A stretch of DNA of 64,000 nucleotides from Candidatus Daviesbacteria bacterium (lineage in GTDB: Bacteria; Patescibacteriota; Microgenomatia; Daviesbacterales; UBA10151), in NCBI GenBank assembly GCA_016176335.1, contig JACOXI010000003.1, positions 113,104 to 177,103 on the forward strand. Reading direction: 5' to 3'. The position numbers and the translations under genes were made by a program. How positions within the stretch are numbered: position 1 is the stretch's first letter; each line of letters opens with the position of its first letter. This document shows, piece after piece, positions 5,069 through 64,000 of the stretch. The notes under the pieces are model-generated. The model was not told the DNA's origin, ran no database searches, and saw only the letters and a list, made by a program, of their open reading frames with translations.

Positions 5069-5138
5069 AGCCAAATTGTACCATAAAATATTTTCAATCA
5101 CTAGTCCCAAAACCCTAAAATATGCTAAGCTGAAAATA

Positions 5139-6290
5139 ATGTCCAAGGTTAATAAAATTCTCGCAATAATATTTTTATTTAGTTTTGGCCTACTGGTTTA
5201 TTTCCCTCAGACAGTAGCGGCAGCCAATTGTCCCTTTACTTTTGATCCTCCTGTACCTTACCAAAATATGGGTGATTTATCGGTAACTATTACACCTCGT
5301 GATATAAAAAGTGGAACTTACCAACTTGTGACTTACAAAGGAAATATCTCCAAACCTGAAATAAATACACGTGGTGATATTCAATTAATTACAGGAAAGG
5401 CTGTTACCACTCAGCTCAAAAAACCACTCTCTGGATGGGAAGCAGGCACTTACACACTCTACCTGAGAGACCGAGATGTTGAGGGTAGTGTTCAAGATGT
5501 GGCTGCTTGTAAAACAAGCTTTTCCTTATCAGATATCCCAGCCCAACCTACATGTACGGCTAGTATAGAAACAAAACCAATTGATCCTGATACTAAAGTC
5601 GTATTAAAAATCTCCGATATTGCATCAGGTAATTACGATATATTAATAAATAATGAGTTTGCCGAGACATATAACACAAGTACCGGTGAAACAGTGTTTT
5701 TATGTAAGGGTGGAACTGAAGATAAGAATTGCAAATTTAATGTTGGTACCTATACAGTCACTATTAAAAACCAATGCGGATTCGGCGATTTCACTTGCAA
5801 AAGCCGGCTGCAGTGCAAGCCAGTAGCTTTCCAGGTTGCTCCTTTAGGAAGTGCTGGAGGTGGGCAGGTAGATACAACTCAAGTAGGGACTGCGACTACA
5901 AAGCAATGTAAAAGTAAGGATGATCCAACTTTCAATAAGAACACCGATATGGTTTGTGCTCTAGCTGGAGGGATTCCATGCGAGAATAAAAACGATGGCA
6001 GAGGACCAGCTTTTGCTACTGCCATTGGCTGTATTCATACCTCTCCTGTTGAATTTATCAAGGACTTTTTAAAGTTTATCTTGGGGATTTCCGGAGGATT
6101 GGCATTTTTGATGATGCTTTTGGGAATATTTCAGATGCTGACTTCTGCCGGTAATCCGGAGACTTTATCAGCCGGCAGGGACAGGTTGCAATCTGCCGTC
6201 ATAGGACTTTTGTTTGTAATTTTTGCTGTTCTTCTGCTTCGAATTATTGGAGTTGATATACTGGGACTGGGAGGACAGTTTGGTTTATAA
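5139..6290 (+). CDS. Secreted Cys/Thr-rich protein with C-terminal VirB2/TrbC-like pilin domain (candidate pilus-tip adhesin or major pilin precursor)
   Basis: Signal peptide (MSKVNKILAIIFLFSFGLLVYFPQTVAAA) and many Cys. The C-terminus (GIFQMLTSAGNPETLSAGRDRLQSAVIGLLFVIFAVLLL) carries the same motif as the five small pilin-like proteins downstream. Confidence 0.65.
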   Translation: MSKVNKILAIIFLFSFGLLVYFPQTVAAANCPFTFDPPVPYQNMGDLSVTITPRDIKSGTYQLVTYKGNISKPEINTRGDIQLITGKAVTTQLKKPLSGWEAGTYTLYLRDRDVEGSVQDVAACKTSFSLSDIPAQPTCTASIETKPIDPDTKVVLKISDIASGNYDILINNEFAETYNTSTGETVFLCKGGTEDKNCKFNVGTYTVTIKNQCGFGDFTCKSRLQCKPVAFQVAPLGSAGGGQVDTTQVGTATTKQCKSKDDPTFNKNTDMVCALAGGIPCENKNDGRGPAFATAIGCIHTSPVEFIKDFLKFILGISGGLAFLMMLLGIFQMLTSAGNPETLSAGRDRLQSAVIGLLFVIFAVLLLRIIGVDILGLGGQFGL

Positions 6291-6299
6291 TTTAAACCC

Positions 6300-6617
6300 A
6301 TGGAAAAGCTTGGTGATTTATTAAAAGATTCCGGTGTGCCAAACTTTAGCGGTCAAAATGCCAAACTTGGAGTACTTTTATCCGGCCTTTTAAACATAGC
6401 TTTTTATATTGCTGTTTTTTTGGCTTTTTATTGGCTGGTGTGGGGGGCTTGGGCTTATCTTTTTGCTTCAGGTAAAAAAGAAGACCTGGCCAAAGCACGG
6501 GCGCGAATCAGTTGGGCCTTAATAGGGTTAATTGTGATCTTTTTGGCTTACTTTATAGCCAAATATGCTTCGGAGTTTTTCCCAACACAATTTGGTAAAG
6601 GAGGAGGACCGTTTTGA
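6300..6617 (+). CDS. VirB2/TrbC-like pilin paralogue 1
   Basis: 105 aa, two TM helices. Family motif WGAWAYLFASGKKEDLAKARARISWALIGL (family consensus [WF]GAFxW[ML]TSGG(x)7AR(x)2I(x)2AxIG). Confidence 0.6.
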   Translation: MEKLGDLLKDSGVPNFSGQNAKLGVLLSGLLNIAFYIAVFLAFYWLVWGAWAYLFASGKKEDLAKARARISWALIGLIVIFLAYFIAKYASEFFPTQFGKGGGPF

Positions 6618-7018
6618 GAGAATTTAGAATTAAGCTTTTTTTGAATTATTTTTTTATAGCTTTATTCTTGATTCTTACAGCTTTATTCTTACCAATCCCT
6701 GCTTATGCTGCATCTCCTGCTCCCGGGGTAGATATTAAAGAGTATTTTGGTTTTGGAAATATTGGCTCTTTGGGGGAAGGGACTACCAGACTGGTGGAGC
6801 CGGCTTTTCAGTTAACAGCAGCAGTGGTGGTGATCTACTTTCTTTTGGGGGCATTTAAATACTTAAGGGCAGGTGGCAACAAAGAGGAACTGGAGGGTGC
6901 AAGGCAAATGATTATCCATGCCATTATTGGGTTTATAATACTCATGTTTGCTTTTTTGGTGTTACAGTTTATATTATCGAACTTGTTTAAAGTAACTGAT
7001 TTTCAGATAATAGGGTAA
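6614..7018 (+). CDS. VirB2/TrbC-like pilin paralogue 2
   Basis: 134 aa. Signal peptide, then GAFKYLRAGGNKEELEGARQMIIHAIIG. Overlaps the previous gene by 4 nt (operon). Confidence 0.6.
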   Translation: MREFRIKLFLNYFFIALFLILTALFLPIPAYAASPAPGVDIKEYFGFGNIGSLGEGTTRLVEPAFQLTAAVVVIYFLLGAFKYLRAGGNKEELEGARQMIIHAIIGFIILMFAFLVLQFILSNLFKVTDFQIIG

Positions 7019-7020
7019 TT

Positions 7021-7353
7021 ATGGATTTTTCAAAAAATTTCGGCTCTATTAGTCCCCCGCCTGCTATAAAAGATTTTATTGGCAGTGACCCAACAGGCGC
7101 AGGTGGAATTAGTCAGTTTTTAAGTAATCTTGTGACCCTGATTTATGGTTTAGCTGCCATAGTTTTGCTTTTTATGATCCTTTGGGGAGCTTTTGACTGG
7201 ATGACTTCCGGAGGGGAAAAAGAAAAGTTAGAATCTGCCAGAAATAAAATCATCAGTGCCATAATCGGCATCATGCTTTTTGCAGTGGCTTTTGCTATCA
7301 TCCAGGTTTTAGGCCAATTTACAGGATTTACATTTTTCGTCGGCCAAAAGTGA
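7021..7353 (+). CDS. VirB2/TrbC-like pilin paralogue 3
   Basis: 110 aa. WGAFDWMTSGGEKEKLESARNKIISAIIG. Confidence 0.6.
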   Translation: MDFSKNFGSISPPPAIKDFIGSDPTGAGGISQFLSNLVTLIYGLAAIVLLFMILWGAFDWMTSGGEKEKLESARNKIISAIIGIMLFAVAFAIIQVLGQFTGFTFFVGQK

Positions 7354-7410
7354 CCCTAATTCAACCAGCACTTGACAAGTAGTTTATACTTTGAATAAGA
7401 TTAAGACATT

Positions 7411-7785
7411 GTGAAAAAATTAGTTGTTTTATTATCAACCATTATTGCGCTTGTAGCCCCCAAGATAGCCTTTGCCGCTACTCCACCACCAGTTGTTGTT
7501 AGTCCTCCTCCTCAAGGATATCAGAATTTGGGAAATTTTATTACCCAAGCCATCACTTTGATTTTCGGGTTCGCCATTCTGGTAGTTTTGGTCATGCTGG
7601 TTTGGGGAGCATTTGAGTGGATTACCTCCGGAGGAGACAAGGAAGCTGTTGGCAAAGCCAGAAATAGAATTATTAATGCTTTGATAGGATTGGCTGTGTT
7701 GGCTGTGGCATATGCCCTGACAAAAGTGGCTGCAGATTTTGTAGGCATCAATCTTCTCAATATCACAATACCCGGACCGCCATAA
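7411..7785 (+). CDS. VirB2/TrbC-like pilin paralogue 4
   Basis: 124 aa, GTG start. Signal peptide AFAATPPP. WGAFEWITSGGDKEAVGKARNRIINALIG. Confidence 0.6.
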   Translation: MKKLVVLLSTIIALVAPKIAFAATPPPVVVSPPPQGYQNLGNFITQAITLIFGFAILVVLVMLVWGAFEWITSGGDKEAVGKARNRIINALIGLAVLAVAYALTKVAADFVGINLLNITIPGPP

Positions 7786-7830
7786 TTTTTCTATTTGATC
7801 TTTACAGCCTCTTAATGTTAACCTTAAAAT

Positions 7831-8145
7831 ATGGGTCCTGATGCAGCCGGATTAGATCAGATTGAGCAAGTTTTTACAAGTGTTATATCTGTGATGGTAG
7901 GTTTGGGGTTTGTGGCGCTTTTGGTACTTTTGGTTTTGGCCGGGTTCAAATACCTGACCTCCGGAGGAGAGCAAAAAGCTGTACAGCAGGCTCATCTAAC
8001 AGTTACCTGGGCGCTTTTGGGAATACTTTTTATGGCCATTGCCTGGCTGCTGCTGCAGCTTATTGAAAACTTTACCGGAATAAAAGTCACTACTTTTGAT
8101 ATTAAAAGTTTGTGTGAAGTTGGTGGCAAGCAATTTTGTAAGTGA
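7831..8145 (+). CDS. VirB2/TrbC-like pilin paralogue 5
   Basis: 104 aa. AGFKYLTSGGEQKAVQQAHLTVTWALLG. Confidence 0.55.
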   Translation: MGPDAAGLDQIEQVFTSVISVMVGLGFVALLVLLVLAGFKYLTSGGEQKAVQQAHLTVTWALLGILFMAIAWLLLQLIENFTGIKVTTFDIKSLCEVGGKQFCK

Positions 8146-15671: not shown

Positions 15672-15699
15672 GGTTTTGTATAGAAAAGTTTTCCAAAAC

Positions 15700-15790
15700 C
15701 TATGGACTGATTCCCTTCGACTTCGTCCTTCGATTTCACTCAGGACTTCGCTCAGGGTTATAATCAGTGTAGAGCTTCGGTCAACTAACT
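15700..15790. repeat. R2 GC-rich motif cluster (AGTCGAAGG / CCTGAGCG direct repeats) in the 5' leader of the 1416-aa gene
   Basis: Minus-sense reads CCCTGAGCGAAGTCCTGAGTGAAATCGAAGGACGAAGTCGAAGGG. The same motifs are found at 17975-18060 and 43600-43712, always just upstream of a gene and in the same relative orientation. Confidence 0.55.
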
Positions 15791-15884
15791 GTCAATCCTT
15801 CGACACTATGCTTCGGACTGATCTCCTTTCTAGATTGTTTATCGTAACGCCTTGCGGCTCTTCGTATATCGAATATCGCGGATT

Positions 15885-15930
15885 GCCGATAAACGATAAC
15901 CGATTAACGATAAACCATTAACCAATTACC
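15885..15930. repeat. R3 module CGATAAACGATAACCGATTAACGATAAACC (degenerate tandem 8-9-bp units) in upstream region of 1416-aa gene
   Basis: 29 of 31 nt identical to a segment inside tsaD (40402-40432). Related CGTATATCG / GTTTATCGT motifs flank the gene at 46768-47130. Confidence 0.55.
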
Positions 15931-16607: not shown

Positions 16608-17963
16608 CTAAATTAACGTCCCATTGCATACATAACACTTTTCAGTGCAGTAATTTACCTCTCCACAACTGATACAGCTTTTACCTTTCTTGCCTGCTTC
16701 TCCTCCAAAAACACTGCTTATGCTTCTAACTATTCCTGAAATCAAATTGCCGATCTTACTGGCAATACCTCCAACTGAAAATCCTGCTGATAATCCGCAT
16801 CCTCCTGCAACTACCCTGACTGCCTGATAACCCAGCCAGTTAACCTTCTCTTCCAAAGTCTTAAAAATAGGCATGATTTTATTTACAATTTTAGATGTCA
16901 TGCTTACCACTTTATCTTTTATACCAACTAAACCCTCCCAAATATAATCTGCTCCATTCAAAACAGCATTTAGGGCAACTTTTACCTGCTCGGGTGCAAA
17001 AACTGATCCACATATTCTATCTACCAAACAATGTATAAGGTCTGAACTCCCCTGGGCAATTTTTTGAAAACCCTCTTCTTTTAAAGCATTTTTCCTTTGT
17101 ATTAAGATCTCACCGCTACTTTCAAAAATAGGATTAGCCAGCAACCACTGATCTTTTGACCCTACCCTTCCATTAAAATAATCCGGTCTTGAAGCGGTTA
17201 TCATCTCTTCTGCCTGCTCATAACTTAAGTCTGAGGCAAAACGAGTCATTTGAACTATTCTTCTTCGAGTAAATGGGTCTTCTAAAAGCTCGTAACGATC
17301 CAAGAAATTATCAGTGAATATAGTACCTTCTACTAAACCAGGCCCTGAGATAACTTCAACTTTTAAATCTACTGGGGCGTTTGGATCTGCAAAAGCTTTC
17401 TGTATTTTTACAATACCAACCTTCTCTTGTTCTATTCTTGGAACATCATGTGATCCCATTTGCCTGTAATATTCAATGCCAACTGTTAAAACGTCTTCAA
17501 AAGCTTGATTGGGTAAATCCCTACTTCTTAACTTGCCATCATCATCAATATCATAAATAACAATACTGGTGGCTACATGGTAGCGTTCTCTTAGAGCAGT
17601 TTCTATCTGCTTTATTTCATGAAGTTTAAACTGTTTTCTTTCTTCTTCGGTTTGCAGAGTCTCAAACATTGCTCTTTCTAAAACAGGATTATAATTTCTA
17701 ACAGGCCCTCTTGCTTTTGTTTCTAAACTTCCATCAAATTGATTTTGTAATCTTGCTACTCTTGCTAAATATTCTTCAGTATCGAGTTTTTGTGTGTTAG
17801 AAACCCCTGTAGGGGGTAAGATTCGCTCGATTGGTCGCGCAATAACTATTGTATTATTAAAAGGGGAAACCTGTTCTCGTCTACCTCCTACATCCGGTTG
17901 AATTAAAATATCTAACTGCTTAAGATTTGGGGGTGTTAAATGTTGAAGTGTCTCTACTGACAT
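16608..17963 (-). CDS. Hypothetical 451-aa protein with Gly-rich segment and C-terminal Cys4 zinc-ribbon-like tail (CISCGEVNYCTEKCYVCNG)
   Basis: Long ORF. SD-like AGGAG lies 4 nt upstream of the ATG. No recognisable enzymatic motif. Confidence 0.7.
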   Translation of the reverse strand: MSVETLQHLTPPNLKQLDILIQPDVGGRREQVSPFNNTIVIARPIERILPPTGVSNTQKLDTEEYLARVARLQNQFDGSLETKARGPVRNYNPVLERAMFETLQTEEERKQFKLHEIKQIETALRERYHVATSIVIYDIDDDGKLRSRDLPNQAFEDVLTVGIEYYRQMGSHDVPRIEQEKVGIVKIQKAFADPNAPVDLKVEVISGPGLVEGTIFTDNFLDRYELLEDPFTRRRIVQMTRFASDLSYEQAEEMITASRPDYFNGRVGSKDQWLLANPIFESSGEILIQRKNALKEEGFQKIAQGSSDLIHCLVDRICGSVFAPEQVKVALNAVLNGADYIWEGLVGIKDKVVSMTSKIVNKIMPIFKTLEEKVNWLGYQAVRVVAGGCGLSAGFSVGGIASKIGNLISGIVRSISSVFGGEAGKKGKSCISCGEVNYCTEKCYVCNGTLI

Positions 17964-17974
17964 ATTGCTCCTGC

Positions 17975-18060
17975 AACGGGACCCTTCGACTACGCTCAGG
18001 GTAAATTGTGGTCGGTCTCCTGGCTCTTCGACTCGCTTCGCTCGCTCAGAGCTATAGCTT
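17975..18060. repeat. R2 GC-rich motif cluster upstream of the 451-aa gene
   Basis: Minus-sense reads TCTGAGCGAGCGAAGCGAGTCGAAGAG ... CCCTGAGCGTAGTCGAAGGG, directly before the RBS and ATG. Confidence 0.55.
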
Positions 18061-18163
18061 ACCGAATCACAGTTGCGGCACAGCCCCGGACTTACACCGG
18101 GTTCCCTTTTTGTATCTTCTCCCGCTTAAAGGCGGCATGATACACCACGTTTTAAGAATAACA

Positions 18164-18262
18164 ACTCAAAACTCAAATGTCAAAACTCAAAATTACAAAT
18201 CAAATCTCAAAACTTTTTAGATTTAAGATGTAGATTTGCGATTTGAGATCTAAGATTGAGAT
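18164..18262 (+). repeat. Dispersed ~100-bp repeat R1, copy b
   Basis: CTCAAAACTCAAATGTCAAAACT ... GATGTAGATTTGCGATTTGAGATCTAA. Matches 15-118 and the reverse complement of 45630-45735. Lies about 80 nt upstream of the gene at 18341. Confidence 0.55.
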
Positions 18263-18340
18263 TAGTAGAGATTGTCCCATAATGATCCCTTTTGTGCTGC
18301 TTGCCATCATTTTTTTCACATTGTATACATTTAAGTAATT

Positions 18341-19384
18341 ATGGAATCGCACCCAATCCCACAAAATGTCACCACTTTCCAGTTCCACCTGGTTGGGGAT
18401 ATGACCTTAAAGCAATTTATATACCTTGCCACAGGCTCCGGATTAGCCTATTTTGTGTTTATTTTTTTTGTGGCGGATTATCCATATTTTGCTTGGCCGC
18501 TGATCTTGACTGCTGCCGGGTTGGGAACAGCTTTTGCCTTCTTGCCTATAAATTCCAGACCATTGGATTATTGGACTGCAGCTTTTTTAAAAGCAATTTA
18601 TTCACCCACCAAAAGAGTCTGGAAGAAAAATAATAAATCTTACCAGGAAGATCCTACCTTTAACAGCAGGCTTTTCACATATTTAGCAGGTCTTCAGCCT
18701 ATTCAACAGCAACCTGTACCTCCCGTCTATAATCCACCGCATGTTGCAAAGTCTGTCACCGCAGAAGCTCCACCCCTGCCCACCCCCGAACAGTTGGGAA
18801 AAACAGTTGATCTGGCAAGACAGGCACAAAACCTGCAAATGAAAATAATCCAAACCGAGCGAACCCTAAATCAGATTAAGACAGCCGCACAAAGTCCAAC
18901 CCAAATACCTGTTGATTACACGCAACAAGTTAATACCGTGCTGTCAGATTTGCAAAATCTGGTCACCCAAGCATCTCAAATCAAACAACAGATTGAGTTT
19001 GTTCATCAGCCTGAACCTACAAACACCCTTCCTTTGCCAATTGCCCCAAGGCCGAAGGTGACAGTAATTGTTCCTACCAAAGCAAAAGTGACCCAAGTGG
19101 CCCTGACCACATTCCCCAATGTCATAAACGGCATAGTTAAAGATGCCAATGCCAATTACCTGGAAGGAGTGGTGGTGGTAATTTATGATAAGGAAGGATT
19201 GCCTGTCAGAGCGCTGAAAACAAACAAATTAGGTCAGTTTACAGGTTCTACCCCCTTGCCAAACAGTATTTACACTGTTGAGCTGGAGAAAGATGGATTT
19301 GCTTTTGATGTTTTGCAGGTTGAATTAACAGGCACAACTTTACCGCCTTTAACAATTACGGCAAAGGGGCCGGGAGTTTCCTGA
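18341..19384 (+). CDS. VirB3/PrgI-like membrane protein with extended Gln/Pro-rich C-terminal region
   Basis: N-terminal pair of TM helices (LAYFVFIFFVADYPYFAWPLILTAAGLGTAFAFL) resembles the VirB3/PrgI family. Lies immediately upstream of the VirB4 genes. Function is inferred from position and topology. Confidence 0.4.
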   Translation: MESHPIPQNVTTFQFHLVGDMTLKQFIYLATGSGLAYFVFIFFVADYPYFAWPLILTAAGLGTAFAFLPINSRPLDYWTAAFLKAIYSPTKRVWKKNNKSYQEDPTFNSRLFTYLAGLQPIQQQPVPPVYNPPHVAKSVTAEAPPLPTPEQLGKTVDLARQAQNLQMKIIQTERTLNQIKTAAQSPTQIPVDYTQQVNTVLSDLQNLVTQASQIKQQIEFVHQPEPTNTLPLPIAPRPKVTVIVPTKAKVTQVALTTFPNVINGIVKDANANYLEGVVVVIYDKEGLPVRALKTNKLGQFTGSTPLPNSIYTVELEKDGFAFDVLQVELTGTTLPPLTITAKGPGVS

Positions 19385-19385
19385 A

Positions 19386-20135
19386 ATGAGTACAACGCAA
19401 CAACATCTGTCCATATCTGACATCAAAGACAATATAATTTTGCTAAAAGACGGCGGCGGGGCCTTGGTTTTGCAAATTTCCGCCGTAAACTTCAGGCTTC
19501 TATCTGAACGTGAGCAAATTGCCATCATCAGTAGCTTTGCCCAAATGTTAAACTCGCTTTCTTTTTCTATCCAAATCCTAATTTTTTCAGAAAGATTAAA
19601 TATCAACTCTTATCTTGTGCTTTTGGATAAAGCCCAAAAATTACAGTCTAATCCGATGCTTTCCAATATGATCATAAATTACCGCCAGTTTATCCAAAAT
19701 ACCATCAAGGAAAACGAGGTCCTGGATAAAAAATTCTATCTAGTGATCCCGCTTTTTAATCTGGAGCTGGGGCTTGCACCCACCAGAGTTATTTTGCAAC
19801 AAAAAATCAAAACCATACTGCTTCCCAGAAGAGATCAAATAATAAGACAGCTTTCAAGAGTGGGGCTGGCAGCAATCCAACTGAACACAAATGAGCTGAT
19901 TGAACTATTTTATGATATTTACAATGGCCAGTTTGTGGAAAGTATGGCCTCAAAGCCAATTAGCGCCGATACAATGCAGGTCCAATTAAACCAACCTCAA
20001 GAGGCTGTTAAAACTTCAACATACAAATCTCAAGTTGTTGATCAACCCCAAGCTCCGCTACAACCAAGCCCTGCTACTACCCAGTCATCAAGAACACACC
20101 CGTTTGTGGTGGAGGAGTTAGATGAAAATACCTAA
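19386..20135 (+). CDS. VirB4 N-terminal-domain-like protein (no ATPase motifs)
   Basis: SISDIKDNIILLKDGGGALVLQISAVNFRLLSEREQ resembles the N-terminus of Gram-positive VirB4/TraE/PrgJ homologues. Overlaps the next ORF by 14 nt in a different frame. Confidence 0.45.
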   Translation: MSTTQQHLSISDIKDNIILLKDGGGALVLQISAVNFRLLSEREQIAIISSFAQMLNSLSFSIQILIFSERLNINSYLVLLDKAQKLQSNPMLSNMIINYRQFIQNTIKENEVLDKKFYLVIPLFNLELGLAPTRVILQQKIKTILLPRRDQIIRQLSRVGLAAIQLNTNELIELFYDIYNGQFVESMASKPISADTMQVQLNQPQEAVKTSTYKSQVVDQPQAPLQPSPATTQSSRTHPFVVEELDENT

Positions 20136-21879
20136 TCCTTTTAAAAAACAACCTGACGAGCAATCCACTCCTACCCAACTAACTATTGAGGATGTGCTTG
20201 CTCCGCAGGAGATTGAGGTTGATTTCCATAACTTAAGGATCAATGACCGTTTTTTTAGGACTTACTTTATCTCCAATTACCCGCGGTTTGTGGAACCGAA
20301 CTGGCTGGAGCCAATAATATCTTTTGATCACTCGCTTTTGATATCGATGTTTATATACCCTTCCCAATCTGCCGGTGTATTGGATGATTTAAAAAGAAAG
20401 ATTGCCGAGATGGAAGCAACAATACAAACGGATTTTGAGCGGGGAAGAGCCATAGACCCGTCTGTTGAGGTGGCTTTGGAAGACGCCAGGGGTTTACAGG
20501 AACAGTTGGTCAAAGGGGTTGAGAGATTTTTCCAGTTTGCCCTTTATGTGACCATTCCCTCCGCAAGCTTAGAAGAATTACACAATACCTCAAAACTGGT
20601 TGAATCAACGCTTGCATCTTTATCTATGAGCGCAAAAGTGACATCTTTGCAGATGGAAGACGGGTTCAAATCAACTCTCCCGCAAGGAACGGATTTGTTA
20701 AATCTAACCTATAATATGGACACTACCTCCTTGGCAACAACCTTTCCTTTTGCCTCATCGGAGCTGACAGCTAATGAAGGTATTATGTATGGAATCAACG
20801 AACATAATGATTCGCTCATACTTTTTGACAGGTTTAGCTTGGAGAACGCCAATTCTGTGATTTTTGCCAAAGCCGGAGCCGGGAAATCATATCTGGTTAA
20901 ACTTGAAGCCTTACGTTCTTTGATGTTTGGGACGGAGATTATTATCATCGATCCTGAACAGGAATACTTACCTTTATCGCAAGCTGTGGGAGGAGAATTT
21001 ATTAACTTTTCCGCCTCATCTCCTATTAAAATAAACCCGTTCGACTTAAATCCGCAACTGGCATCCGGTGAAAATGAGTTGGGGAGGAAAATTCTATCTT
21101 TGACCGCATTCTTAAAACTGGTTTTGGGTAATTTAAGCGCAACAGAGGCGGCAATACTGGACAGATCCTTAAAACAAACATACCAGCAAAAGGGAATTAC
21201 GGATGATCCTAAAACGCAAGATCGACAACCACCTTTAATGGAGGATTTGTACAAAGTTTTAATGGGCATGGAAGAACCATCTGCCCTGGAACTTGCGGCA
21301 AGATTGGAAAGATTTATTAAAGGCTCTTTGACCGGAATATTTTCTGCCCAATCAAATGTGGCAATTGCCAATGCCTTTACGGTTTTTTCGGTCAGAGACT
21401 TGCCGGACCAACTACGACCTTTGGCAATACACATGATTTTGGAGTATGTTTGGACCAAAATAAGAAGCAGGCTTAAAAAAAGAATCCTGATTGTTGATGA
21501 AGCCTGGTATCTGATGAGAAATGCTGACAGCGCAGATTTTTTGGTGGATATGGCCAAAAGGTCAAGAAAATACTATTTGGGTTTAACCACTATAACGCAG
21601 GATGTTGAGGATTTTTTGACAACGGAGAGAGGAAAAGAAATCATCTCAAATTCCTCAATTCAAGTTCTTTTAAAACAAGCGCCTGTTTCAATTGACCTTT
21701 TGGCCAAGGTGTTTAATCTGTCCGAGGGCGAACAAAGACTGCTGCTGTCAGAGGGAATAGGACAAGGATTGTTTTTTGCAGGCAATACTCATGTTGCCAT
21801 GAGAGTGGTTGCCTCACCGAAGGAACACCAACTCATCACCTCAAACCCGCAAGAGATTTTGGCAAGACAAAGTGTTTAA
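20122..21879 (+). CDS. VirB4/TraE-like conjugal-transfer-type ATPase
   Basis: Walker A FAKAGAGKSY and Walker B ILIVDEAWYLM. The N-terminal YFISNYPRFVEPNWLEPI motif is typical of VirB4. Confidence 0.75.
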   Translation: MKIPNPFKKQPDEQSTPTQLTIEDVLAPQEIEVDFHNLRINDRFFRTYFISNYPRFVEPNWLEPIISFDHSLLISMFIYPSQSAGVLDDLKRKIAEMEATIQTDFERGRAIDPSVEVALEDARGLQEQLVKGVERFFQFALYVTIPSASLEELHNTSKLVESTLASLSMSAKVTSLQMEDGFKSTLPQGTDLLNLTYNMDTTSLATTFPFASSELTANEGIMYGINEHNDSLILFDRFSLENANSVIFAKAGAGKSYLVKLEALRSLMFGTEIIIIDPEQEYLPLSQAVGGEFINFSASSPIKINPFDLNPQLASGENELGRKILSLTAFLKLVLGNLSATEAAILDRSLKQTYQQKGITDDPKTQDRQPPLMEDLYKVLMGMEEPSALELAARLERFIKGSLTGIFSAQSNVAIANAFTVFSVRDLPDQLRPLAIHMILEYVWTKIRSRLKKRILIVDEAWYLMRNADSADFLVDMAKRSRKYYLGLTTITQDVEDFLTTERGKEIISNSSIQVLLKQAPVSIDLLAKVFNLSEGEQRLLLSEGIGQGLFFAGNTHVAMRVVASPKEHQLITSNPQEILARQSV

Positions 21880-21894
21880 TGATACTCTACTAAT

Positions 21895-24135
21895 ATGGCT
21901 GGTCAAGATGTTAATTTTTATAAATATCTAGAAGCTGCTTTTAGGTTTAAATTATTTAATCCCGAAGGTCAAAGAGCCGGTTTTGATACTCATTTTAATC
22001 ACTTAAATTATAACCTGACTTACAAGCAGATTTTCTTTTATGCCAGAAAAATTCTGCCCAAATTTTATACCAGTGAATTCCCCGATACTGAAGAAGGTAA
22101 TCTGCAAATGGCCAAAAAGGTTTTGGAACAGCTGGACAAACATCAAGATACCCAGCTTGAGAATCAATTTAAATCAGTTACTGTTTCAGAGGAAAATACT
22201 CAAATCATAACTGAAGCGCAAGCACAGTCACAACAAACTGAAGCGATATCCACACAAACACCAGTTGGTACATCCGAAGGTATGATGAGTGGGCCAGGTT
22301 TACCTTCTGCTCCATCTAAATCTTTCGGGCCGCGGCGTGTTTTTATTGCCAACCAGACCCCTCCACCTGCAGGAGGCATGGAGGGAGGAATAGGCCAAGG
22401 CACGGCTGCTACTAATAAAGCAAATGCCAAAGCAAGCAGGCTGGAAGCTGAAACAAACCGGCTAAATGTGCAAACTGCTGCTCCCCGAAGATTTAACTGG
22501 GGTGGCTTTAAAATACCTGCCTCATTTACAAATGCAGCCAAAAATTTTGGTTCTGAGTCCCAAAGATTTATCGGTACAAATTTAGGGAGAATTGGCAAGG
22601 GTCTTGGAGAAATAGCCGGAGGATTAGGCAGAGGGATTGCCGGCCCTGCTCTTACCGGTACATACAATCTCCTGGGAAAAGCAGGCAGTGGCAGCCTTAA
22701 TGCTTTTGAAAGAATAACCAGACCAGGAGGCACAGGAGGAGGCGGAATAGGCAGAGGATTATCCAAATCCTCAAACAAATTAGCCTGGGGTTTGATCGGG
22801 ATAATGTTGTTTTTTGTCTTATTCGGCAGTATGTTAGGCGGCCTGGCAGGAACTACACCCACCGGTCAAGCCAGCCCAATTGGATCCATTGGATCTTTTG
22901 ATATTAGTAGTTGTAAATTTACAAGAGGCCAAGAAAATCCCAAAGAAGCCACTTTTAAAAGCAATAAACTTCTTTCGTATATTCAAGAGGCATCCCAAAA
23001 ATCAAACATCCCTCCTGCAGTACTTGCAGCCTTTATCAGGGTAGAGTCCCCCTCTTCATCCAATATGTCAGACGATCAGATTTCCAATTATTCTGCAAAT
23101 TGTGTACAAAGCTCTACAGGAGCACTGGGAATTATGCAGATCCAACCTTCTGGTACAACTTCTGCTAGAGGAGACCCGGCAAGTTGCGATGACTGCATTG
23201 ATGCGGGAGCCAAACTGATGGGTAAAACTGTTTCCACTATGACTAGGCAGGATTATTGTGATCCAAGAACAAATATCATTGTAGGAGCTGGTTGGATTTT
23301 AAAAAAAATGAGCAAATTAGGTTATGGCGATAGCACAAAATGGGATACTGCATGGACTAATGACAGAAAAGCAATTGAAGCCTTGGTCAATACTTACTAT
23401 GGATGCTTGCAATATGGAGACGCAACAAAAGACTGCGCCGGCCCCTATAACTATGCCGATGATGTTTCCACTAGTATCCAAAACTGCCAAGCGCAATCCC
23501 AAACAGTTCCGCCCCCACTAGCAGATGGAAATTATAAAAAATGGGTTCAGGATTTTGGAATCAATATTAATGACGGCTTTGTGCCGGATGTTTATAAATG
23601 GGCTTATGAAGTTTTAGCTTCTACATCTAGTATAGCGCCCAAATTTAAAGACCGCCTGGGTAGTACTCTCATTGAGATCAAACCAACCTGCGATATTTCC
23701 AAAACTAGCGGACGGATAATCTTTCTAAGAAATAAAATTCAATTCTGTCCCGGAGCAACTAAAGATGGGCCAACCGCTGATGAAAAACTGTTTAAACAAG
23801 TCTTTATTCACGAACTGGGACATATTATTAATGGATCATCCAGACCAGGCAAATATGGAGATCAAATCAAACAAGCTATTGCTGCTGAGGGATATCTCAC
23901 TGCTTATTCTCAAAAAGCAGCTACTGCAGATGATGAAATCTGCGGAGCCGCCGACTTAAATACCAGAGCTGATGAAGACTTTGCAGAAAGTATCTCTTAC
24001 TTTGTTAACCAAGGAATCAAAGAACAAGATTATGGGTGTGGTACAAACCTTAATCAAAACCCCATCTATGCTCAAGATAACAATCATCCTTTATACCTTA
24101 AGCATATTCAACTAATGATTGATTTGTTAAGATAA
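21895..24135 (+). CDS. Bifunctional cell-wall hydrolase: Gly-rich region + TM + lytic transglycosylase (SLT) domain + C-terminal HExxH metallopeptidase-like domain (VirB1/PrgK-type role)
   Basis: SLT signature ES...GALGIMQIQP, and FIHELGHIING. Position directly after virB4 matches T4SS-associated muramidases. Confidence 0.65.
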   Translation: MAGQDVNFYKYLEAAFRFKLFNPEGQRAGFDTHFNHLNYNLTYKQIFFYARKILPKFYTSEFPDTEEGNLQMAKKVLEQLDKHQDTQLENQFKSVTVSEENTQIITEAQAQSQQTEAISTQTPVGTSEGMMSGPGLPSAPSKSFGPRRVFIANQTPPPAGGMEGGIGQGTAATNKANAKASRLEAETNRLNVQTAAPRRFNWGGFKIPASFTNAAKNFGSESQRFIGTNLGRIGKGLGEIAGGLGRGIAGPALTGTYNLLGKAGSGSLNAFERITRPGGTGGGGIGRGLSKSSNKLAWGLIGIMLFFVLFGSMLGGLAGTTPTGQASPIGSIGSFDISSCKFTRGQENPKEATFKSNKLLSYIQEASQKSNIPPAVLAAFIRVESPSSSNMSDDQISNYSANCVQSSTGALGIMQIQPSGTTSARGDPASCDDCIDAGAKLMGKTVSTMTRQDYCDPRTNIIVGAGWILKKMSKLGYGDSTKWDTAWTNDRKAIEALVNTYYGCLQYGDATKDCAGPYNYADDVSTSIQNCQAQSQTVPPPLADGNYKKWVQDFGININDGFVPDVYKWAYEVLASTSSIAPKFKDRLGSTLIEIKPTCDISKTSGRIIFLRNKIQFCPGATKDGPTADEKLFKQVFIHELGHIINGSSRPGKYGDQIKQAIAAEGYLTAYSQKAATADDEICGAADLNTRADEDFAESISYFVNQGIKEQDYGCGTNLNQNPIYAQDNNHPLYLKHIQLMIDLLR

Positions 24136-24143
24136 AACTTACA

Positions 24144-24611
24144 ATGAGGCAAAAAACAATAGTTATATTGGGGATTTTGGGAGCGATAATTTTACTGTTA
24201 ATCTCTCAAAAAGTTTTGCTTGTCAGACCGATTTCTCTTCCATCCGGCACCCAGCCATCATCAACGCCTTCCCAGAACTCAACTCAACCAAATGAATCCC
24301 CCAAAATTTTATCCACCAAACCAGATCCTTTGGATCAGGCTGTTATATCATCGGATCAGCAGATTGAAATTGTATTTAACAGAGGCTTGGAAAACGAGGG
24401 CGAGTTTAAGATCAGAATAGAACCAAAAGTAAAGTATAAAATAACTCTTTCCGGGGATCATAAAACCGCCAAAATTACCCCAGAGGAATCATATGAGCTG
24501 GGAGTTGGCTACACCATGTTTATCACAGGAGATACCAAATTCGAAGGTGTGGGGCCTTGGGGGGAGGAAAAAACCTTCCATTTCCAAACCATAAAATACA
24601 GAGGTATCTAA
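24144..24611 (+). CDS. Small membrane-anchored protein with Ig-like beta-rich ectodomain
   Basis: 155 aa. N-terminal TM anchor and a Ser/Thr/Pro linker. Last gene of the + strand T4SS-like block. Confidence 0.5.
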   Translation: MRQKTIVILGILGAIILLLISQKVLLVRPISLPSGTQPSSTPSQNSTQPNESPKILSTKPDPLDQAVISSDQQIEIVFNRGLENEGEFKIRIEPKVKYKITLSGDHKTAKITPEESYELGVGYTMFITGDTKFEGVGPWGEEKTFHFQTIKYRGI

Positions 24612-25708
24612 TTGGTCCTGACCGGCATTACAATATATTCCAACCCCTCAACTCCGACAGGTTTTACTCGCGCAGCAGAAAGAGATCCTGAAAATTCAAT
24701 CATAATTTGTAAAGACGGAGAATTTGTCACTGCATCCAGCAAAAACTTTGAATTAAAAGCAATCTGAAGGTTGTCACCCTCAACATTTGCCTCAATCTCG
24801 TTTTGTTGGCTGCCCAATTCTTTGGCAGAGGATTCGATTTTCATTCTGCTTTTTTCCAGGGTCAAAATAACAATATTGGTTTCGTTTTTGGCAAAAACAG
24901 CTGCCAATTTTACGGCCTTTAAAAGCTCTTCTTTATCCACCATCACTCTTGTGACTATTTCTGTCGGGATGATTTTTTCCCAAGAGGGGAATTGACCTTC
25001 AATCAGCCTGGAGGAAAGTAATGTTTTCCCTAAATTAAAAACCACCTGGTTTTGATCACTAGAGGCTGCAAGCTCAATCTTATCCACCTCTGTTTCCGAA
25101 ATAATCCGCAATACTTCCTCAAATGTTCTTCTTGGGATCAAGCTTTTAAACTGAATCTCTTTACCTTGAAGTTTAACTCTCCTGTGAGCCAGCCTAAAGC
25201 CGTCTGTTGCCACAAAATCAACCTTTCCCCCTGAAACATCAGTCAAAACTCCTGTTAAAACAGGACGCCCTTCGTCAACAGCCGCTGCAAAAAGGATTTG
25301 GGAAGAAGACAAAACTATTTCTTTTGACAGCTCTACCCCGTCTTTGGCAGATAAAGGAATAGCAGGGAATTCTGTTGCCGGAATACAGTTTATACTAGCC
25401 TTAAACTTGTTGCTTTCAACCACCAGACCCTCTCCTTCTGTTGTAACAGTCACTTTGGATTGACCCAAGCCGGAGACCAGTTCAATCAGGGTTTTTGCGG
25501 GAACCGTGATACTGCCTTCCTCAAAAACCTCCACATTAATAGACCGTATAACCCCAATCTCCAAATTGGTGGCAGCAACTTTCAGCTTTTTACCTTCTGT
25601 CGAAAGCAGAATATTATCCAAAACAGGCAGGGTGGATCTTATTCCTACAGACCTCCCGACAGCTTGCAAGTGCGGCAATAAATCCTGTTGTAAAGTGGAA
25701 AATTTCAT
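24608..25708 (-). CDS. dnaN: DNA polymerase III beta sliding clamp
   Basis: 366 aa. Typical DnaN start (MKFSTLQQDLL..LQAV) and three-domain length. Follows dnaA with one gene in between. Confidence 0.9.
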   Translation of the reverse strand: MKFSTLQQDLLPHLQAVGRSVGIRSTLPVLDNILLSTEGKKLKVAATNLEIGVIRSINVEVFEEGSITVPAKTLIELVSGLGQSKVTVTTEGEGLVVESNKFKASINCIPATEFPAIPLSAKDGVELSKEIVLSSSQILFAAAVDEGRPVLTGVLTDVSGGKVDFVATDGFRLAHRRVKLQGKEIQFKSLIPRRTFEEVLRIISETEVDKIELAASSDQNQVVFNLGKTLLSSRLIEGQFPSWEKIIPTEIVTRVMVDKEELLKAVKLAAVFAKNETNIVILTLEKSRMKIESSAKELGSQQNEIEANVEGDNLQIAFNSKFLLDAVTNSPSLQIMIEFSGSLSAARVKPVGVEGLEYIVMPVRTN

Positions 25709-26166
25709 TCCCGACCTTCTTTCTTGGCAGTAACAAATTTTTGTATCTCTTCTTCGGTAACCTTTATTAATCTGAAGTTAACACGACCGGCAGCAATTAG
25801 GTTTTTAATGTGTTTTTCCTCGTCTGTCAAGAGGAAACTTTGTCCACTCTTTACTTCGATAAAATCAATTTTGTCCCCGTTTTTTATACCGATAAAATCA
25901 ATAGGCCAGCCAAGCGGGATGATTCTGTCGTAATCATAGCGTAGTTCGGCGTAGGTCAAAAGTTCTGCCATTCTTCCTTTTTGAGGGTTGATAGAACCCT
26001 GAATTGTTTGTAAAATCCTCAAAGGTAAATCCTGCACTCCTTTGTACAAATCTATTAAATCTTGTGGTATATCGGTTTTCCCTCTTCCGTGTAGTCTTCC
26101 AAAAAGATAAGTAATGATAAGTGCTGAGACAATTAAGATGATAACAACCCAGTTAAAATTATCCAC
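25705..26166 (-). CDS. Membrane-anchored NERD/Hjc-like PD-(D/E)xK nuclease-fold protein
   Basis: N-terminal TM (VVIILIVSALIITYLF). Catalytic-core-like AELLTYAELRY...PIDFIGIKNGDKIDFIEVKSG (E...D...EVK). Sits between dnaA and dnaN. Confidence 0.55.
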   Translation of the reverse strand: MDNFNWVVIILIVSALIITYLFGRLHGRGKTDIPQDLIDLYKGVQDLPLRILQTIQGSINPQKGRMAELLTYAELRYDYDRIIPLGWPIDFIGIKNGDKIDFIEVKSGQSFLLTDEEKHIKNLIAAGRVNFRLIKVTEEEIQKFVTAKKEGRE

Positions 26167-26298
26167 CGCGTCTTCCGATTATACTACAGCTTATTAATAT
26201 TAATAGTAGTAAATAATATGTTCGGTGGATATGTTGAGAACTTAAAACTTTGTGTTTGGGATTCGCCAAAAATTCGTGTTGATGCTCGGTTTATTTTT

Positions 26299-26338
26299 AG
26301 TGGATAACTTGTGGACAAACTAATTTGTATGTGGATAA
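26299..26338. promoter_or_regulatory. Cluster of three DnaA boxes (aGTGGATAA, TGTGGACAA, TGTGGATAA) with adjacent AT-rich tract (26195-26220); candidate oriC / DnaA-regulated region
   Basis: Matches the 9-mer consensus TTATCCACA / TGTGGATAA at 26299-26307, 26310-26318 and 26330-26338. A further 8/9 box lies at 26159-26167. Confidence 0.6.
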
Positions 26339-26343
26339 ATCAG

Positions 26344-27660
26344 TTAATTTGTAATTCTGTTTTTTATCTCAATAAGCATCCGCTGTACTTCTCTGTCTGT
26401 GGCGACAAGTTTTTTTATCTTGTCCCTGCCGTGCATGACAGTGGTATGGTCCCTGCCGCCTAAAATTTGTCCGATTCTTTCAACAGTCATTTTAAGATGT
26501 TCGCTTAAGATAAACATGGTGATGTGTCTTGGTAAGACCAACTCTTTTTGTCTTTTGGAGCCGGCCAGTTCTTTTTGAGTCAGGTTGAAGTAACCGCATA
26601 CTGTTGCCAAGACCTGTTTAGAGTCAACCTTGGGGTTGTTTTTGGGGGGGCTTTGTAAATACCTGCCTATATTTTCTGTTGTAGGAGGTAAATTTTGAGT
26701 TTTTAACATCTGTAAAATCCCAACAAGTTTCCCCTCAAGCTCTCTGATATTGGTATCAAAAGATGAGGCTAAAAGCTGCAGGGCTTCTTCTTCCAAAATT
26801 ACTCCTTGTTCCAAGCATTTTGCCCGGAGAATTGCCACCCGGGTGTCAAAATCAGGTTGTTGTATATCAATCATTAAGCCTCCGGCAAAGCGTGATTTTA
26901 ATCTGTCTTCGATTTTTGCTATTTCGTTGGGAGATCTGTCAGATGTTAAAACTATCTGGGAGTTTTTGCCGATTAGTTCGTTAAATGTATGAAAAAACTC
27001 CTCCTGTGTTCCTTCTCTGCCTGAAAAGAATTGGATGTCATCTACCAACAGAACATCCGAAGAACGGTATTTTTTTCTTAAATCCCCCATTTTATGAGTT
27101 TGTATGGCCTCAACATAATCGTTCATAAATTTTTCAGAAGAGCAGTAAATAATTTTGCCATGAGGTTTCTTAGATAAAATTGCATTGCCGATACCAAGCA
27201 TAAGATGCGTTTTGCCAACACCGGTTCCGCCATAAATAAACAAAGGATTGTATGATGCTCCGGGGCTTGTGACAACTGCCAAAGCTGCGGCATATGCAAC
27301 ATTGTTGGAAGGCCCCACCACAAAATTTTCCAAGCTATATTTGGGGTTTAGGTAAGAAGTTTGCCTTTGTGCCGGCTGGAAAAAATCTTCATCGTTCGTT
27401 TCTGGTTGTTTATCAACCTCTTTTACAATAAACTCAACATTTATTTTTTTATCTAAAAGTTTTTCAAAAGTATCCGCAATAATTTCTTTATATTTTTGCT
27501 GCAGAGTTTCTTTTATAAAAGCTGAAGGCGTGCTTAAAATAATTTTGTCCCCCACATAACTTTTTACAGTGGTTTTTATAAAATAGGCCTTAAAATTATC
27601 AGCTCCTGCCAAGGGTTTGATAAGTTGTAAAAATTTATGCCAGAGCCTTAAATTATCCAT
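26344..27660 (-). CDS. dnaA: Chromosomal replication initiator DnaA
   Basis: 438 aa. AAA+ Walker A GGTGVGKTHLMLGIGNAI and Walker B LLVDDIQFFSG. C-terminal DNA-binding helix-turn-helix. Confidence 0.95.
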   Translation of the reverse strand: MDNLRLWHKFLQLIKPLAGADNFKAYFIKTTVKSYVGDKIILSTPSAFIKETLQQKYKEIIADTFEKLLDKKINVEFIVKEVDKQPETNDEDFFQPAQRQTSYLNPKYSLENFVVGPSNNVAYAAALAVVTSPGASYNPLFIYGGTGVGKTHLMLGIGNAILSKKPHGKIIYCSSEKFMNDYVEAIQTHKMGDLRKKYRSSDVLLVDDIQFFSGREGTQEEFFHTFNELIGKNSQIVLTSDRSPNEIAKIEDRLKSRFAGGLMIDIQQPDFDTRVAILRAKCLEQGVILEEEALQLLASSFDTNIRELEGKLVGILQMLKTQNLPPTTENIGRYLQSPPKNNPKVDSKQVLATVCGYFNLTQKELAGSKRQKELVLPRHITMFILSEHLKMTVERIGQILGGRDHTTVMHGRDKIKKLVATDREVQRMLIEIKNRITN

Positions 27661-27680
27661 GGTTCGGTAAACTCTTCACA

Positions 27681-27713
27681 TGTGTGGAAAACTTATCCAC
27701 AATTTAATCCACA
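27681..27713. promoter_or_regulatory. DnaA-box cluster upstream of dnaA (TTTTCCACA on minus strand, TTATCCACA, TAATCCACA)
   Basis: Consensus 9-mers at 27682-27690 (reverse complement), 27693-27701 and 27705-27713. Likely a dnaA autoregulation site or an alternative oriC half. Confidence 0.55.
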
Positions 27714-43599: not shown

Positions 43600-43712
43600 G
43601 AGAATCATCCTGAGTACTGAGCGTAGTCGAAGTATCGAAGGACCTCTATTTGACCGCGGTGCTAAACCCAAACCCTGTAAAGGGAAGGATTAGTCCTGAG
43701 CGTAGTCGAAGG
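43600..43712 (+). repeat. R2 GC-rich motif cluster (CCTGAGTACTGAGCGTAGTCGAAGTATCGAAGGACC ... CCTGAGCGTAGTCGAAGG) in leader of gene at 43773
   Basis: Same motifs, in the same gene-relative orientation, as those upstream of the 1416-aa and 451-aa genes. Confidence 0.55.
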
Positions 43713-43721
43713 AAAAATTTT

Positions 43722-43750
43722 AACCTCTCTTTACAAGAGAGGTTTTTTAA
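43722..43750 (+). terminator. Rho-independent terminator-like hairpin (AACCTCTC-TTTACAA-GAGAGGTT + TTTTTT) placed 12 nt before the RBS of the next gene; possible attenuator or sRNA 3' end
   Basis: Perfect 8-bp stem, 7-nt loop and a T6 tract. RBS AAAGGAG at 43762-43768 and ATG at 43773. Confidence 0.6.
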
Positions 43751-48995: not shown

Positions 48996-49036
48996 GGCGC
49001 TATTTTAGCGTTTTTGGGATATAATTGAAAGAAGAC

Positions 49037-49060
49037 TGGTGGTGAGCGGAGTCGAACCAT
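49037..49060. repeat. tRNA 3'-end-like 23-mer (rc CATGGTTCGACTCCGCTCACCAC: T-loop GGTTCGACTCC + acceptor-like) abutting the start codon; direct-repeat copy 1
   Basis: Repeated at 51743-51767 with 1 mismatch. No complete tRNA cloverleaf can be drawn. Confidence 0.5.
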
Positions 49061-51721: not shown

Positions 51722-51742
51722 TTTAACAGATCACTGCTAAAC

Positions 51743-51767
51743 TTGTGGTGAGCGAAGTCGAACCATG
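51743..51767. repeat. tRNA 3'-end-like 23-mer direct-repeat copy 2 (GTGGTGAGCGAAGTCGAACCATG) abutting start codon of next gene
   Basis: See copy 1 at 49037-49060. Confidence 0.5.
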
Positions 51768-63841: not shown

Positions 63842-64000
63842 GCTTTACTTTCGTACATGCGTCAGTTTAGGGATTTTTGGCAGTTTAGTCAAATTTTTAA
63901 ATCCTGAGTTTATCGAAGGACTTCTTTTTTTCATTTTCCTAAAATAGCTTATCGAAAGGATAATCATCACCGCGGCAATACCTCCGGTTACTAAATTTAG

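Follow-up and report, generated by a model that had tools for sequence, protein, structure and literature searches.

A very small hairpin repeat, probably a REP-like mobile element, in riboswitch and other leaders of a Candidatus Daviesbacteria genome

Three genes in a 64,000-nt stretch of Candidatus Daviesbacteria bacterium DNA (GTDB lineage Bacteria; Patescibacteriota; Microgenomatia; Daviesbacterales; UBA10151; assembly GCA_016176335.1, contig JACOXI010000003.1, positions 113,104 to 177,103 of the forward strand), hereafter the window, are preceded by the same GC-rich motif: these code for proteins of 1416 aa, 451 aa and 80 aa. A preliminary description, made from the sequence alone, took the motif for a set of operator sites through which one transcription factor would govern three promoters or, alternatively, for a conserved structured 5' untranslated region (UTR). 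We find a covarying hairpin, and its copies are probably those of a very small mobile element akin to the repetitive extragenic palindromes (REPs). Loci from genomes, viral contigs and metagenomes that were used for comparison are designated by L and a number.

The motif and the leaders that carry it

The motif takes the 18-mer form CCTGAGCG(T/A)AGTCGAAGG. At up to three mismatches, CCTGAGCGWAGTCGAAGG has four matches in the window, against 0.02 expected from dinucleotide shuffles: 15727-15744 (-), 17983-18000 (-), 43616-43633 (+) and 43695-43712 (+). All four lie upstream of, and are co-oriented with, the 1416-aa, 451-aa and 80-aa open reading frames (ORFs), and the motif is richer in GC than its surroundings (window GC about 0.37-0.44). 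To this extent the preliminary description is borne out: the motif is shared, non-random and placed before all three genes in the same orientation. Further copies were found beyond those it had listed. Two are complete, have a different stem and the form GGTGAGCGRAGTCGAACC, and each adjoins a start codon (49036-49059 and 51742-51765, both (+)); in these a 12-nt core, GAGCGNAGTCGA, lies at 49044 (+) and 51750 (+) between the stem strands GGT/ACC. There is also a further shell variant, TCCTGAGTTTATCGAAGGA, at 63902-63920 (+), and a variant copy inside a cobalamin riboswitch at 18023-18052 (-), bringing the total to six loci. As for the copies at start codons (regions 49020-49061 and 51716-51767), removal of the 24-nt unit would leave the ATG only about 10 nt past the TATAAT box at 49020-49025, making the gene nearly leaderless.

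The three leaders first noted are of different kinds. That of the 451-aa ORF is a cobalamin riboswitch: it matches RF00174 over the full model (positions 1-189) with 62.2 bits, the gathering score being 31.5, and an E-value of 5e-13. That of the 80-aa ORF is a match to the SAM-I (S-adenosylmethionine) riboswitch, RF00162, likewise over the full model (1-108), with 39.5 bits against a gathering score of 44.4 and an E-value of 2.5e-7; an intrinsic terminator follows the aptamer. In its P3 helix 62 nt stand where the consensus has a 7-nt loop, and it is because this insert, a nested copy of the motif, takes the place of the loop that the score falls below the gathering score. Both riboswitches have a second copy as well, in the linker that joins the aptamer to the expression signals. 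As for the 1416-aa gene, its leader matched no RNA family in an Rfam scan of the window. With two RNAs for different ligands and one plain leader, these are hence not the parts of a single operator-controlled regulon.

The riboswitches thus revealed in a genome of the candidate phyla radiation (CPR) control genes without an assigned function. The 451-aa protein (16608-18164 (-), including the leader) has no Pfam domain. Its homologs in four other Microgenomates/Daviesbacteria loci (L123-L126) likewise stand behind cobalamin-clan riboswitches, RF00174 or AdoCbl-II, and three of these loci adjoin type IV secretion-like genes; the family is a candidate B12-related CPR protein family, its function unassigned. 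At 43533-44366 (+) the SAM-I riboswitch and its terminator precede two small GC-rich ORFs of 80 aa and about 106-109 aa, which have no Pfam match and returned one homolog cluster only in a protein search; they are convergent with an adenosylhomocysteinase gene (44363-45619 (-)). A 188-aa gene behind a SAM-I/IV riboswitch in L126 is unrelated to them.

Two of the copies are composites in which an outer copy is split by an inner one, set here in single square brackets: 15713-15757 reads CCCTGAGCGAAGT[CCTGAGTGAAATCGAAGGA]CGAAGTCGAAGGG and 43608-43642 reads TCCTGAGTA[CTGAGCGTAGTCGAAG]TATCGAAGGA. The former caps the tip of a longer palindrome, CTGATT/AATCAG. The partial tandem copies spaced 8-11 bp apart, which had been offered as operator sites at a helical period, are accordingly real in their spacing and mistaken in their meaning: they are the halves of nested hairpins. 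This bears directly on the proposal that the copies are operator sites for one transcription factor co-regulating the 1416-aa, 451-aa and 80-aa genes. Over-representation, upstream position and common orientation are all to be expected of such sites, and at 15757 the motif directly follows a promoter-like site; four of the copies, however, lie inside or downstream of riboswitch aptamers, well past any promoter, the ligands of these aptamers differ, and the repeats that suggested a helical spacing resolve into hairpin halves. The coordinates of all these features are collected in Table 1.

Table 1. Copies of the motif and associated regulatory features in the window
Feature	Position	Strand	Basis and remarks
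Nested composite copy, leader of 1416-aa gene	15713..15757	-	Sequence, fold and shell scan; outer CCCTGAG...TCGAAGGG; inner GTCCTGAGTGAAATCGAAGGAC at 15725-15746
Promoter-like site TTGACA, 18-nt spacer, TACACT	15766..15795	-	Consensus scan; conserved in orthologs; putative function
Degenerate copy CCGAAGCATAGTGTCGAAGG just 5' of promoter-like site	15797..15816	-	Weak assignment; not in aligned orthologous leaders
Hairpin copy ACCCTGAGCGTAGTCGAAGGGT between cobalamin aptamer and ribosome-binding site (GGAG at -10) of 451-aa ORF	17981..18002	-	
Cobalamin riboswitch aptamer upstream of 451-aa ORF	17993..18164	-	RF00174 match
Variant copy GCTCTGAGCGAGCGAAGCGAGTCGAAGAGC at tip of variable peripheral helix of cobalamin riboswitch	18023..18052	-	Sequence and shell scan
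SAM-I (S-box) riboswitch aptamer with 62-nt insertion in P3 apical loop	43533..43695	+	RF00162 match
Nested composite copy inside P3 loop of SAM-I riboswitch	43608..43642	+	Sequence and shell scan
Copy TCCTGAGCGTAGTCGAAGGA between 3' strand of SAM-I P1 and terminator	43694..43713	+	
Intrinsic terminator of SAM-I expression platform, AACCTCTCTTTACAAGAGAGGTT then T run	43722..43750	+	Conserved in L367
Complete 24-nt unit CTGG-TGGT-GAGCGGAGTCGA-ACCA	49036..49059	+	Final A is the A of ATG, solute-binding-protein gene
Complete 24-nt unit CTTG-TGGT-GAGCGAAGTCGA-ACCA	51742..51765	+	Final A is the A of ATG, 295-aa ORF
Shell variant TCCTGAGTTTATCGAAGGA	63902..63920	+	GAGTTTATCGA form as in L376; downstream gene beyond window end

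A covarying hairpin and its distribution

The structure of the motif was surveyed in some 3 Mb of comparison DNA, drawn from genomes, from viral contigs and from metagenomes. At least four complementary flanking pairs surround 321 of 350 exact cores, whereas near-miss cores with two mismatches mostly have none; around the fixed core the stem, of 4-8 bp in all, varies among CCT/AGG, GGT/ACC, GTT/AAC, ACT/AGT, GCT/AGC, TCC/GGA and GTC/GAC. In a set of 66 copies whose stems were not fixed by the search patterns, 86.6% of the cells are paired, as against 67.3% in shuffles and 30-45% when the partners are slid, and double-sided stem changes number 110 against 35 in shuffles, a count reached by none of 500 shuffles. 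The stems thus covary strongly. Stems that covary around a constant core are the signature of a folded single strand and not of a duplex binding site, a further point against operators. Moreover, G-T pairs outnumber A-C by 45 to 6 at stem position 4, which identifies the strand reading GAGCGNAGTCGA as the one that folds.

The unit that emerges is about 24 nt long and is composed of a 4-nt 5' tag, a variable 4-bp stem, the invariant 12-nt GAGCGNAGTCGA and the complementary stem strand. The tag is conserved and unpaired: CYTG in the GTGGT family; GCCTG-Y or (C/T)GTCA-Y in the CCT family. Judging from the sequence, the core would fold with tandem sheared G.A/A.G mismatches, a G-C pair, a bulged U (T in DNA) and a C-G pair closing a GNA triloop; this predicted fold, with its tandem G.A, bulged U and GNA triloop, is stated for CCCTGAGCGAAGTCGAAGGG. 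The rare core variants fit it, among them four double changes from C-G to T-A (positions 4 and 8) and G-T at positions 3 and 10. The inner part of the copy in the peripheral helix of the cobalamin riboswitch, GAGCGAAGCGA, is the core without the bulged U. Like a REP, the unit is a short imperfect palindrome with many intergenic copies.

No Rfam 15 family reaches its gathering score on the motif in 18 loci; the Rfam scan of the window matched nothing other than the riboswitch, and a search with a nested copy gave nothing relevant at E-values up to 10. Two other origins were considered and set aside. The reverse complement of the core resembles a tRNA T-arm, but ARAGORN finds no tRNA and the flanks form no T stem; and none of hammerhead, k-turn, boxB, SRP-like or sarcin-ricin motifs fits in a by-eye check against consensus forms.

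The motif is widespread. The exact 18-mer occurs at no fewer than 120 genome loci of a collection of species genomes, with hosts among the matches listed that include cyanobacteria, several CPR groups, Bacteroidota, Acidobacteriota, Chloroflexota, Spirochaetota, Verrucomicrobiota, Planctomycetota, Nitrospirota, Alpha-, Beta- and Gammaproteobacteria, and Clostridia. By our arithmetic chance alone would supply about 70 matches to 17 fixed bases in the whole collection; an extra complementary pair, however, is present in 124 of 134 genome matches where 89 are expected, many matches share a conserved 5' flank and several loci are multi-copy, which together argue that most genome matches are real. 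The 18-mer is found in at least 120 viral contigs as well, and the GTGGT...ACC variant, of the same unit type as the copy at 49036..49059 (CYTG-TGGT-core-ACCA), in at least 120 metagenome contigs, while the core GAGCGNAGTCGA itself spans well over a dozen bacterial phyla and extends to viral contigs and metagenomes. Plasmids of Sphingomonas parapaucimobilis carry 10-31 copies each. In annotated plasmid and phage records nothing is annotated under the copies, and a full-text literature search for the DNA or RNA sequence, its variants and the translated peptides found no paper that gives the sequence: the element is thus both absent from Rfam and, within that search, from print.

Insertion, inheritance and placement of the unit

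Four pairs of otherwise matching sequences, one filled and one empty in each, reveal how copies are gained or lost. The difference is exactly 24 nt in three of the pairs and a net 24 nt in L141 against L201; none has a target duplication. In L285 the unit ACCTGTGGTGAGCGTAGTCGAACC stands between CCTCGCG and AAGGCGAGG, and an empty paralog provides the comparison; L259 likewise differs from its own paralog; and in L296, set against L270, the unit lies between GGCT and TCAGCC at a hairpin tip. Insertions are often found inside hairpin loops, including the triloop of another copy: there are at least 23 distinct nested contexts, the host loop being either the GNA triloop of a second unit or the C-GAA-G loop of a REP of the CGTC-1 type. 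The composite type GAGTA...TATCGA, as at 43608..43642 in the window, recurs in viral contigs L164 and L215.

Some units lie within open reading frames (L376 1521-1540, L038 358-423 and L259 1934), L038 having three tandem copies with a 24-nt period; since 24 is a multiple of 3, such insertions keep the reading frame. In the metagenome contigs L270, L288, L296, L302 and L343 a family of host hairpins, TTTGTGGGTCGCGGCT...AGCCGCGACAT, has compensatory stem changes and the unit at its tip, and L270 also holds an empty copy of this host hairpin.

Might the copies never have moved, each being a stable mini-hairpin of tandem G.A and GNA triloop that arose repeatedly, in terminators for instance, because selection converged on hairpin caps? 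The predicted core fold uses motifs that are very stable in DNA and RNA, namely Y-GA-R tandem mismatches and C-GNA-G triloops (GCGAAGC type); many copies cap longer hairpins, and T runs follow some copies. Convergence, however, leaves unexplained the identity at all 11 fixed core positions, the bulged T, the conserved unpaired 5' tag and the exact 24-nt differences between near-identical filled and empty paralogous sequences. We therefore regard it as very unlikely.

The orthologous leaders present a patchy picture. The cobalamin linker of L126 (47% aa identity) carries CCCTGAGCGAAGTTGAAGGG in the corresponding position, while that of L125 (68% aa identity) carries a hairpin unrelated to the motif, CCACGTTCA...TGAACGTGG; in both, the peripheral cobalamin helix is filled by unrelated AGTTGGTAGT-type repeats. 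In the SAM leader, L367 (75% identity) conserves the SAM-I core and bears a plain hairpin, GTCCTGAA-CTTGT-TTCAGGAC, at the tip of P3 together with a different linker sequence. Upstream of the 1416-aa gene, L376 (55% identity) retains promoter and leader, with the simple shell CCCTGAGTTTATCGAAGGG where the window has its composite copy, while L374 (73% identity) passes directly from the promoter to a short Shine-Dalgarno leader with no hairpin; L374, L376 and L377 all conserve TTGACAG as well as the -10 hexamer. In L376 the whole cassette of promoter, hairpin and leader (TTGACAG...TAAACT...CCCTGAG..TCGAAGGG..AGTCCATAGGTTTTGGA) is duplicated, at 405-485 and 1400-1480, before a MazE-like antitoxin gene and a 1494-aa gene; a search of the window for further cassettes returned the single copy at 15692-15795. 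Carriage in distant orthologs and absence from closer ones mean that presence of the motif does not follow relatedness. A regulon of three promoters finds no support in orthologous leaders that lack the motif or have an unrelated hairpin in its stead (L125, L367 and L374). With the motif missing from orthologous promoters, and with the identical sequence recurring in many phyla and in viral contigs, the copies are almost certainly not operator sites for one transcription factor.

A more serious possibility treats the hairpin as a functional RNA module that selection maintains in 5' leaders of this lineage, its spread being secondary: it could act as a very stable 5'-proximal stem-loop against 5'-end-dependent decay, or belong to riboswitch expression platforms. 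Within the window and the related CPR loci, every copy has the sense orientation and a place in a leader; the hairpin before the 1416-aa gene begins 9 nt after a conserved -10 hexamer, in the cassette that is kept and duplicated in L376; the cobalamin linker hairpin is retained in L126 with a pairing-compatible change, C to T (G-U); and folding is specific to the motif-bearing strand. The closer orthologs, however, have no hairpin (L374) or an unrelated one (L125 and L367). Nor does the preference extend beyond the lineage, where crude ORF calls give co-directional sense and antisense copies in numbers of 28 to 33 in the low-GC stratum (below 0.5) and 35 to 37 in the high-GC one, with no sense or 5' bias, and where, in the genome sample, convergent intergenic sites exceed divergent ones by 33 to 12. 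A selected leader element would not be expected to nest or to insert as exact 24-nt blocks, in some cases within coding sequence, and sense orientation in the window is fully confounded with replication strand (see below). On balance we think this explanation unlikely. Of the alternative offered by the preliminary description, a structured 5' UTR, the covarying hairpin, the sense placement within the lineage and the two copies kept in L126 and L376 survive; a dedicated leader tying the three genes together does not, the hairpin being a generic module.

Two apparent regularities of placement were examined and given up. A sense-strand bias outside the lineage, 29 to 14 in genomes, disappears once viral and metagenome loci are included and GC is stratified; and the idea that the hairpin with its ATG is a translation-start device finds a long ORF in 3 of 26 ACC-ATG cases of the metagenome set, the same rate as the 14 of 96 in controls. 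Across many phyla the motif has no consistent association with gene starts or with the orientation of genes, essentially the pattern that the preliminary description had itself set against a promoter association.

We therefore favour a very small, REP-like mobile hairpin element as the source of the motif, its copies having been inserted in tolerant sites of unrelated leaders, and hold this explanation to be probable. It is directly supported by the folding of one strand, the gain and loss of 24-nt blocks without target-site duplication, nesting, patchy orthologs and wide spread. On this account the element would have colonised at least six leaders in this Daviesbacteria genome, taking sites that tolerate it: the P3 tip and linker of the SAM-I riboswitch; the variable peripheral helix and linker of the cobalamin riboswitch. 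Landing sites are often loops of hairpins already present, the triloops of other copies among them, and this yields the nested copies. Spread may have proceeded, as we suppose with lower confidence, via a single-stranded DNA (ssDNA) intermediate as in REP/RAYT (REP-associated tyrosine transposase) and IS200/IS605 systems; once inserted, the element would probably be at most an extra-stable hairpin cap in the transcript. If the repeat has colonised unrelated leaders in this manner, then the three genes are linked solely by a shared repeat and not by a regulator. A false regulon is thereby removed from the window, and such repeats can mislead motif-based prediction of regulons more generally.

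Several observations weigh against this explanation. Each of the approximately 10 copies from the window and the related CPR loci has the sense orientation and lies either upstream of a start codon or at one, a regularity that a neutral DNA parasite would not predict. For two copies the position in the leader has been preserved in orthologs sharing only 47-55% protein identity, which suggests selection or at least long persistence. Classical REPs are species-specific, and a 12-nt core nearly invariant across phyla is unlike them. No transposase of any kind, Y1_Tnp included, is present among the window ORFs scanned, and the orientation statistics that speak for indifferent placement stem from the crude ORF calls mentioned. 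Lastly, GC skew as a proxy for replication strand has no association with the motif in genome or metagenome loci, with a negative skew in viral contigs; this leaves the six loci of one window as the basis for the ssDNA or lagging-strand idea.

In those six loci the pattern is uniform: copies to the left of dnaA/oriC are all on the - strand and those to the right all on the + strand, i.e. on the lagging-strand template on both sides. As sense orientation in the window coincides fully with the lagging-strand template, the six loci cannot separate the two explanations. The origin region (24608-30126) comprises dnaN (24608-25708 (-)), a resolvase-like ORF, dnaA (26344-27660 (-)), rnpA (28756-29094 (+)) and yidC (29185-30126 (+)), with a 1.1-kb intergenic stretch between dnaA and rnpA (27661-28755); the minimum of the cumulative GC skew, at about 24-28 kb, falls within it.

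A wider proposal may tentatively be put forward, as a possibility short of a probability: the 24-nt unit (tag, 4 bp, GAGCGNAGTCGA, 4 bp) could constitute one family of ultra-small mobile elements across well over a dozen phyla and phage contigs, homing into GNA-type loops without target duplication and regenerating its own target, which would explain nesting; it would be moved by an enzyme yet to be named, possibly broadly conserved and acting on ssDNA, and be tolerated in peripheral loops of structured RNAs. If this is true, the unit is a general source of variation in structured RNAs and of failure in their annotation, and both the mobilising agent and the invariance of the core become directly testable questions. 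A 24-nt hairpin inserted in peripheral riboswitch loops does lower covariance-model scores, as in the SAM-I riboswitch here, which falls under the Rfam gathering score.

The window holds other repeats besides. An AT-rich family (CTCAAAACTCAAATGTCAAAACTC...) has intergenic copies, in both orientations, at 18-61, 18157-18272, 30568-30631 and 45618-45737, one copy being directly upstream of the cobalamin riboswitch. A second family (CGATAAACGATAACCGATTAACG...) is found at 15881-15924, 40405-40434, 41029-41063, 46709-46759 and 47130-47163; two of its copies lie inside the ORF called TsaD (40259-41539, 426 aa), whose Pfam match is in two stretches, and hence may be in-frame insertions in a conserved gene. 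Repeats of the AGTTGGTAGT type are at 4427-4464, 41263-41286 and 61851-61874. In these genomes, whichever repeat family is present seems to accumulate in the peripheral helices of riboswitches. Among the remaining genes, six consecutive ORFs at 5046-8145 each have a type IV secretion pilin domain (PF18895); after this array come VirB4/TraG-like, PrgI-like and SLT-domain genes at 18341-24135.

Relation to known small repeats

Three groups of known elements invite comparison. The first is the superfamily of CGTC-tagged REPs, which includes Neisseria dRS3 and Rickettsia RPE-4/RPE-6, is common to several phyla, has no dedicated transposase, lies in part within palindromes or genes and often forms head-to-head dimers; the tag is often TGTC or CCTC, the stems are 8-9 bp with loops of 4-5 nt, and the first pairs are A-T (Di Nocera et al. 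2013, PMC3733652). Like these, the unit is a short tagged stem-loop dispersed in the intergenic DNA of several phyla with some copies inside genes; head-to-head dimers are present in the Bacteroidota loci L008, L068, L101, L102 and L111; and a CGTC-like tag, (C/T)GTC-A-Y, stands directly 5' of the stem in about 45% of the CCT-stem copies of other taxa. Moreover, hairpins of the CGTC-1 type (CGTCATCCTCGCGAAGGCGAGGATC) themselves host the 24-nt unit in L285, L325, L358 and L359. In the unit, however, 4-5 Watson-Crick pairs close an invariant 12-nt core, so that it fits the superfamily only if the G.A mismatches and inner pairs are counted as stem; the CYTG tag is as common, and the copies in the window are without the CGTC tag, having either no tag or CTGG/CTTG. 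The text of PMC3733652, in the portion available and as distinct from its figures, has neither of the strings GAGCG and GTCGA, nor does it describe triloop insertion and nesting.

The second group is that of the small dispersed repeats (SDRs) of Nostoc. SDR4-6, said to have been described by Elhai and colleagues in 2008, are reportedly mobile, non-coding repeats of 21-27 nt, inserted at small specific sites and nested, hairpins of structured RNAs being among their targets. The resemblance is close: the 24-nt unit falls within that range of length, is inserted as a block, is nested and occurs in riboswitch hairpins. SDRs are reported only in Nostocaceae (PMC5861425), while the unit, found here in a CPR genome, recurs across many phyla and in viral contigs; here, too, it is descriptions and not sequences that are compared.

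The third group comprises the REP/RAYT and IS200/IS605 systems. Classical REPs are species-specific and carry GTAG or GTGG, and IS608 and ISDra2 have an association with the lagging-strand template, according to PMC6006769. The window copies share the latter feature, being on the lagging-strand template. The unit differs in that its tags are CYTG or (C/T)GTCA, with no GTAG or GTGG 0-2 nt 5' of the hairpin foot, and in that the window ORFs scanned include no Y1 transposase gene. Compared by description and not by published consensus sequences, the element is set apart from CGTC-tagged REPs, from the Nostoc SDRs and from the REP/RAYT and IS200/IS605 systems alike by its invariant core, its short Watson-Crick stem, its tags and the breadth of its distribution.

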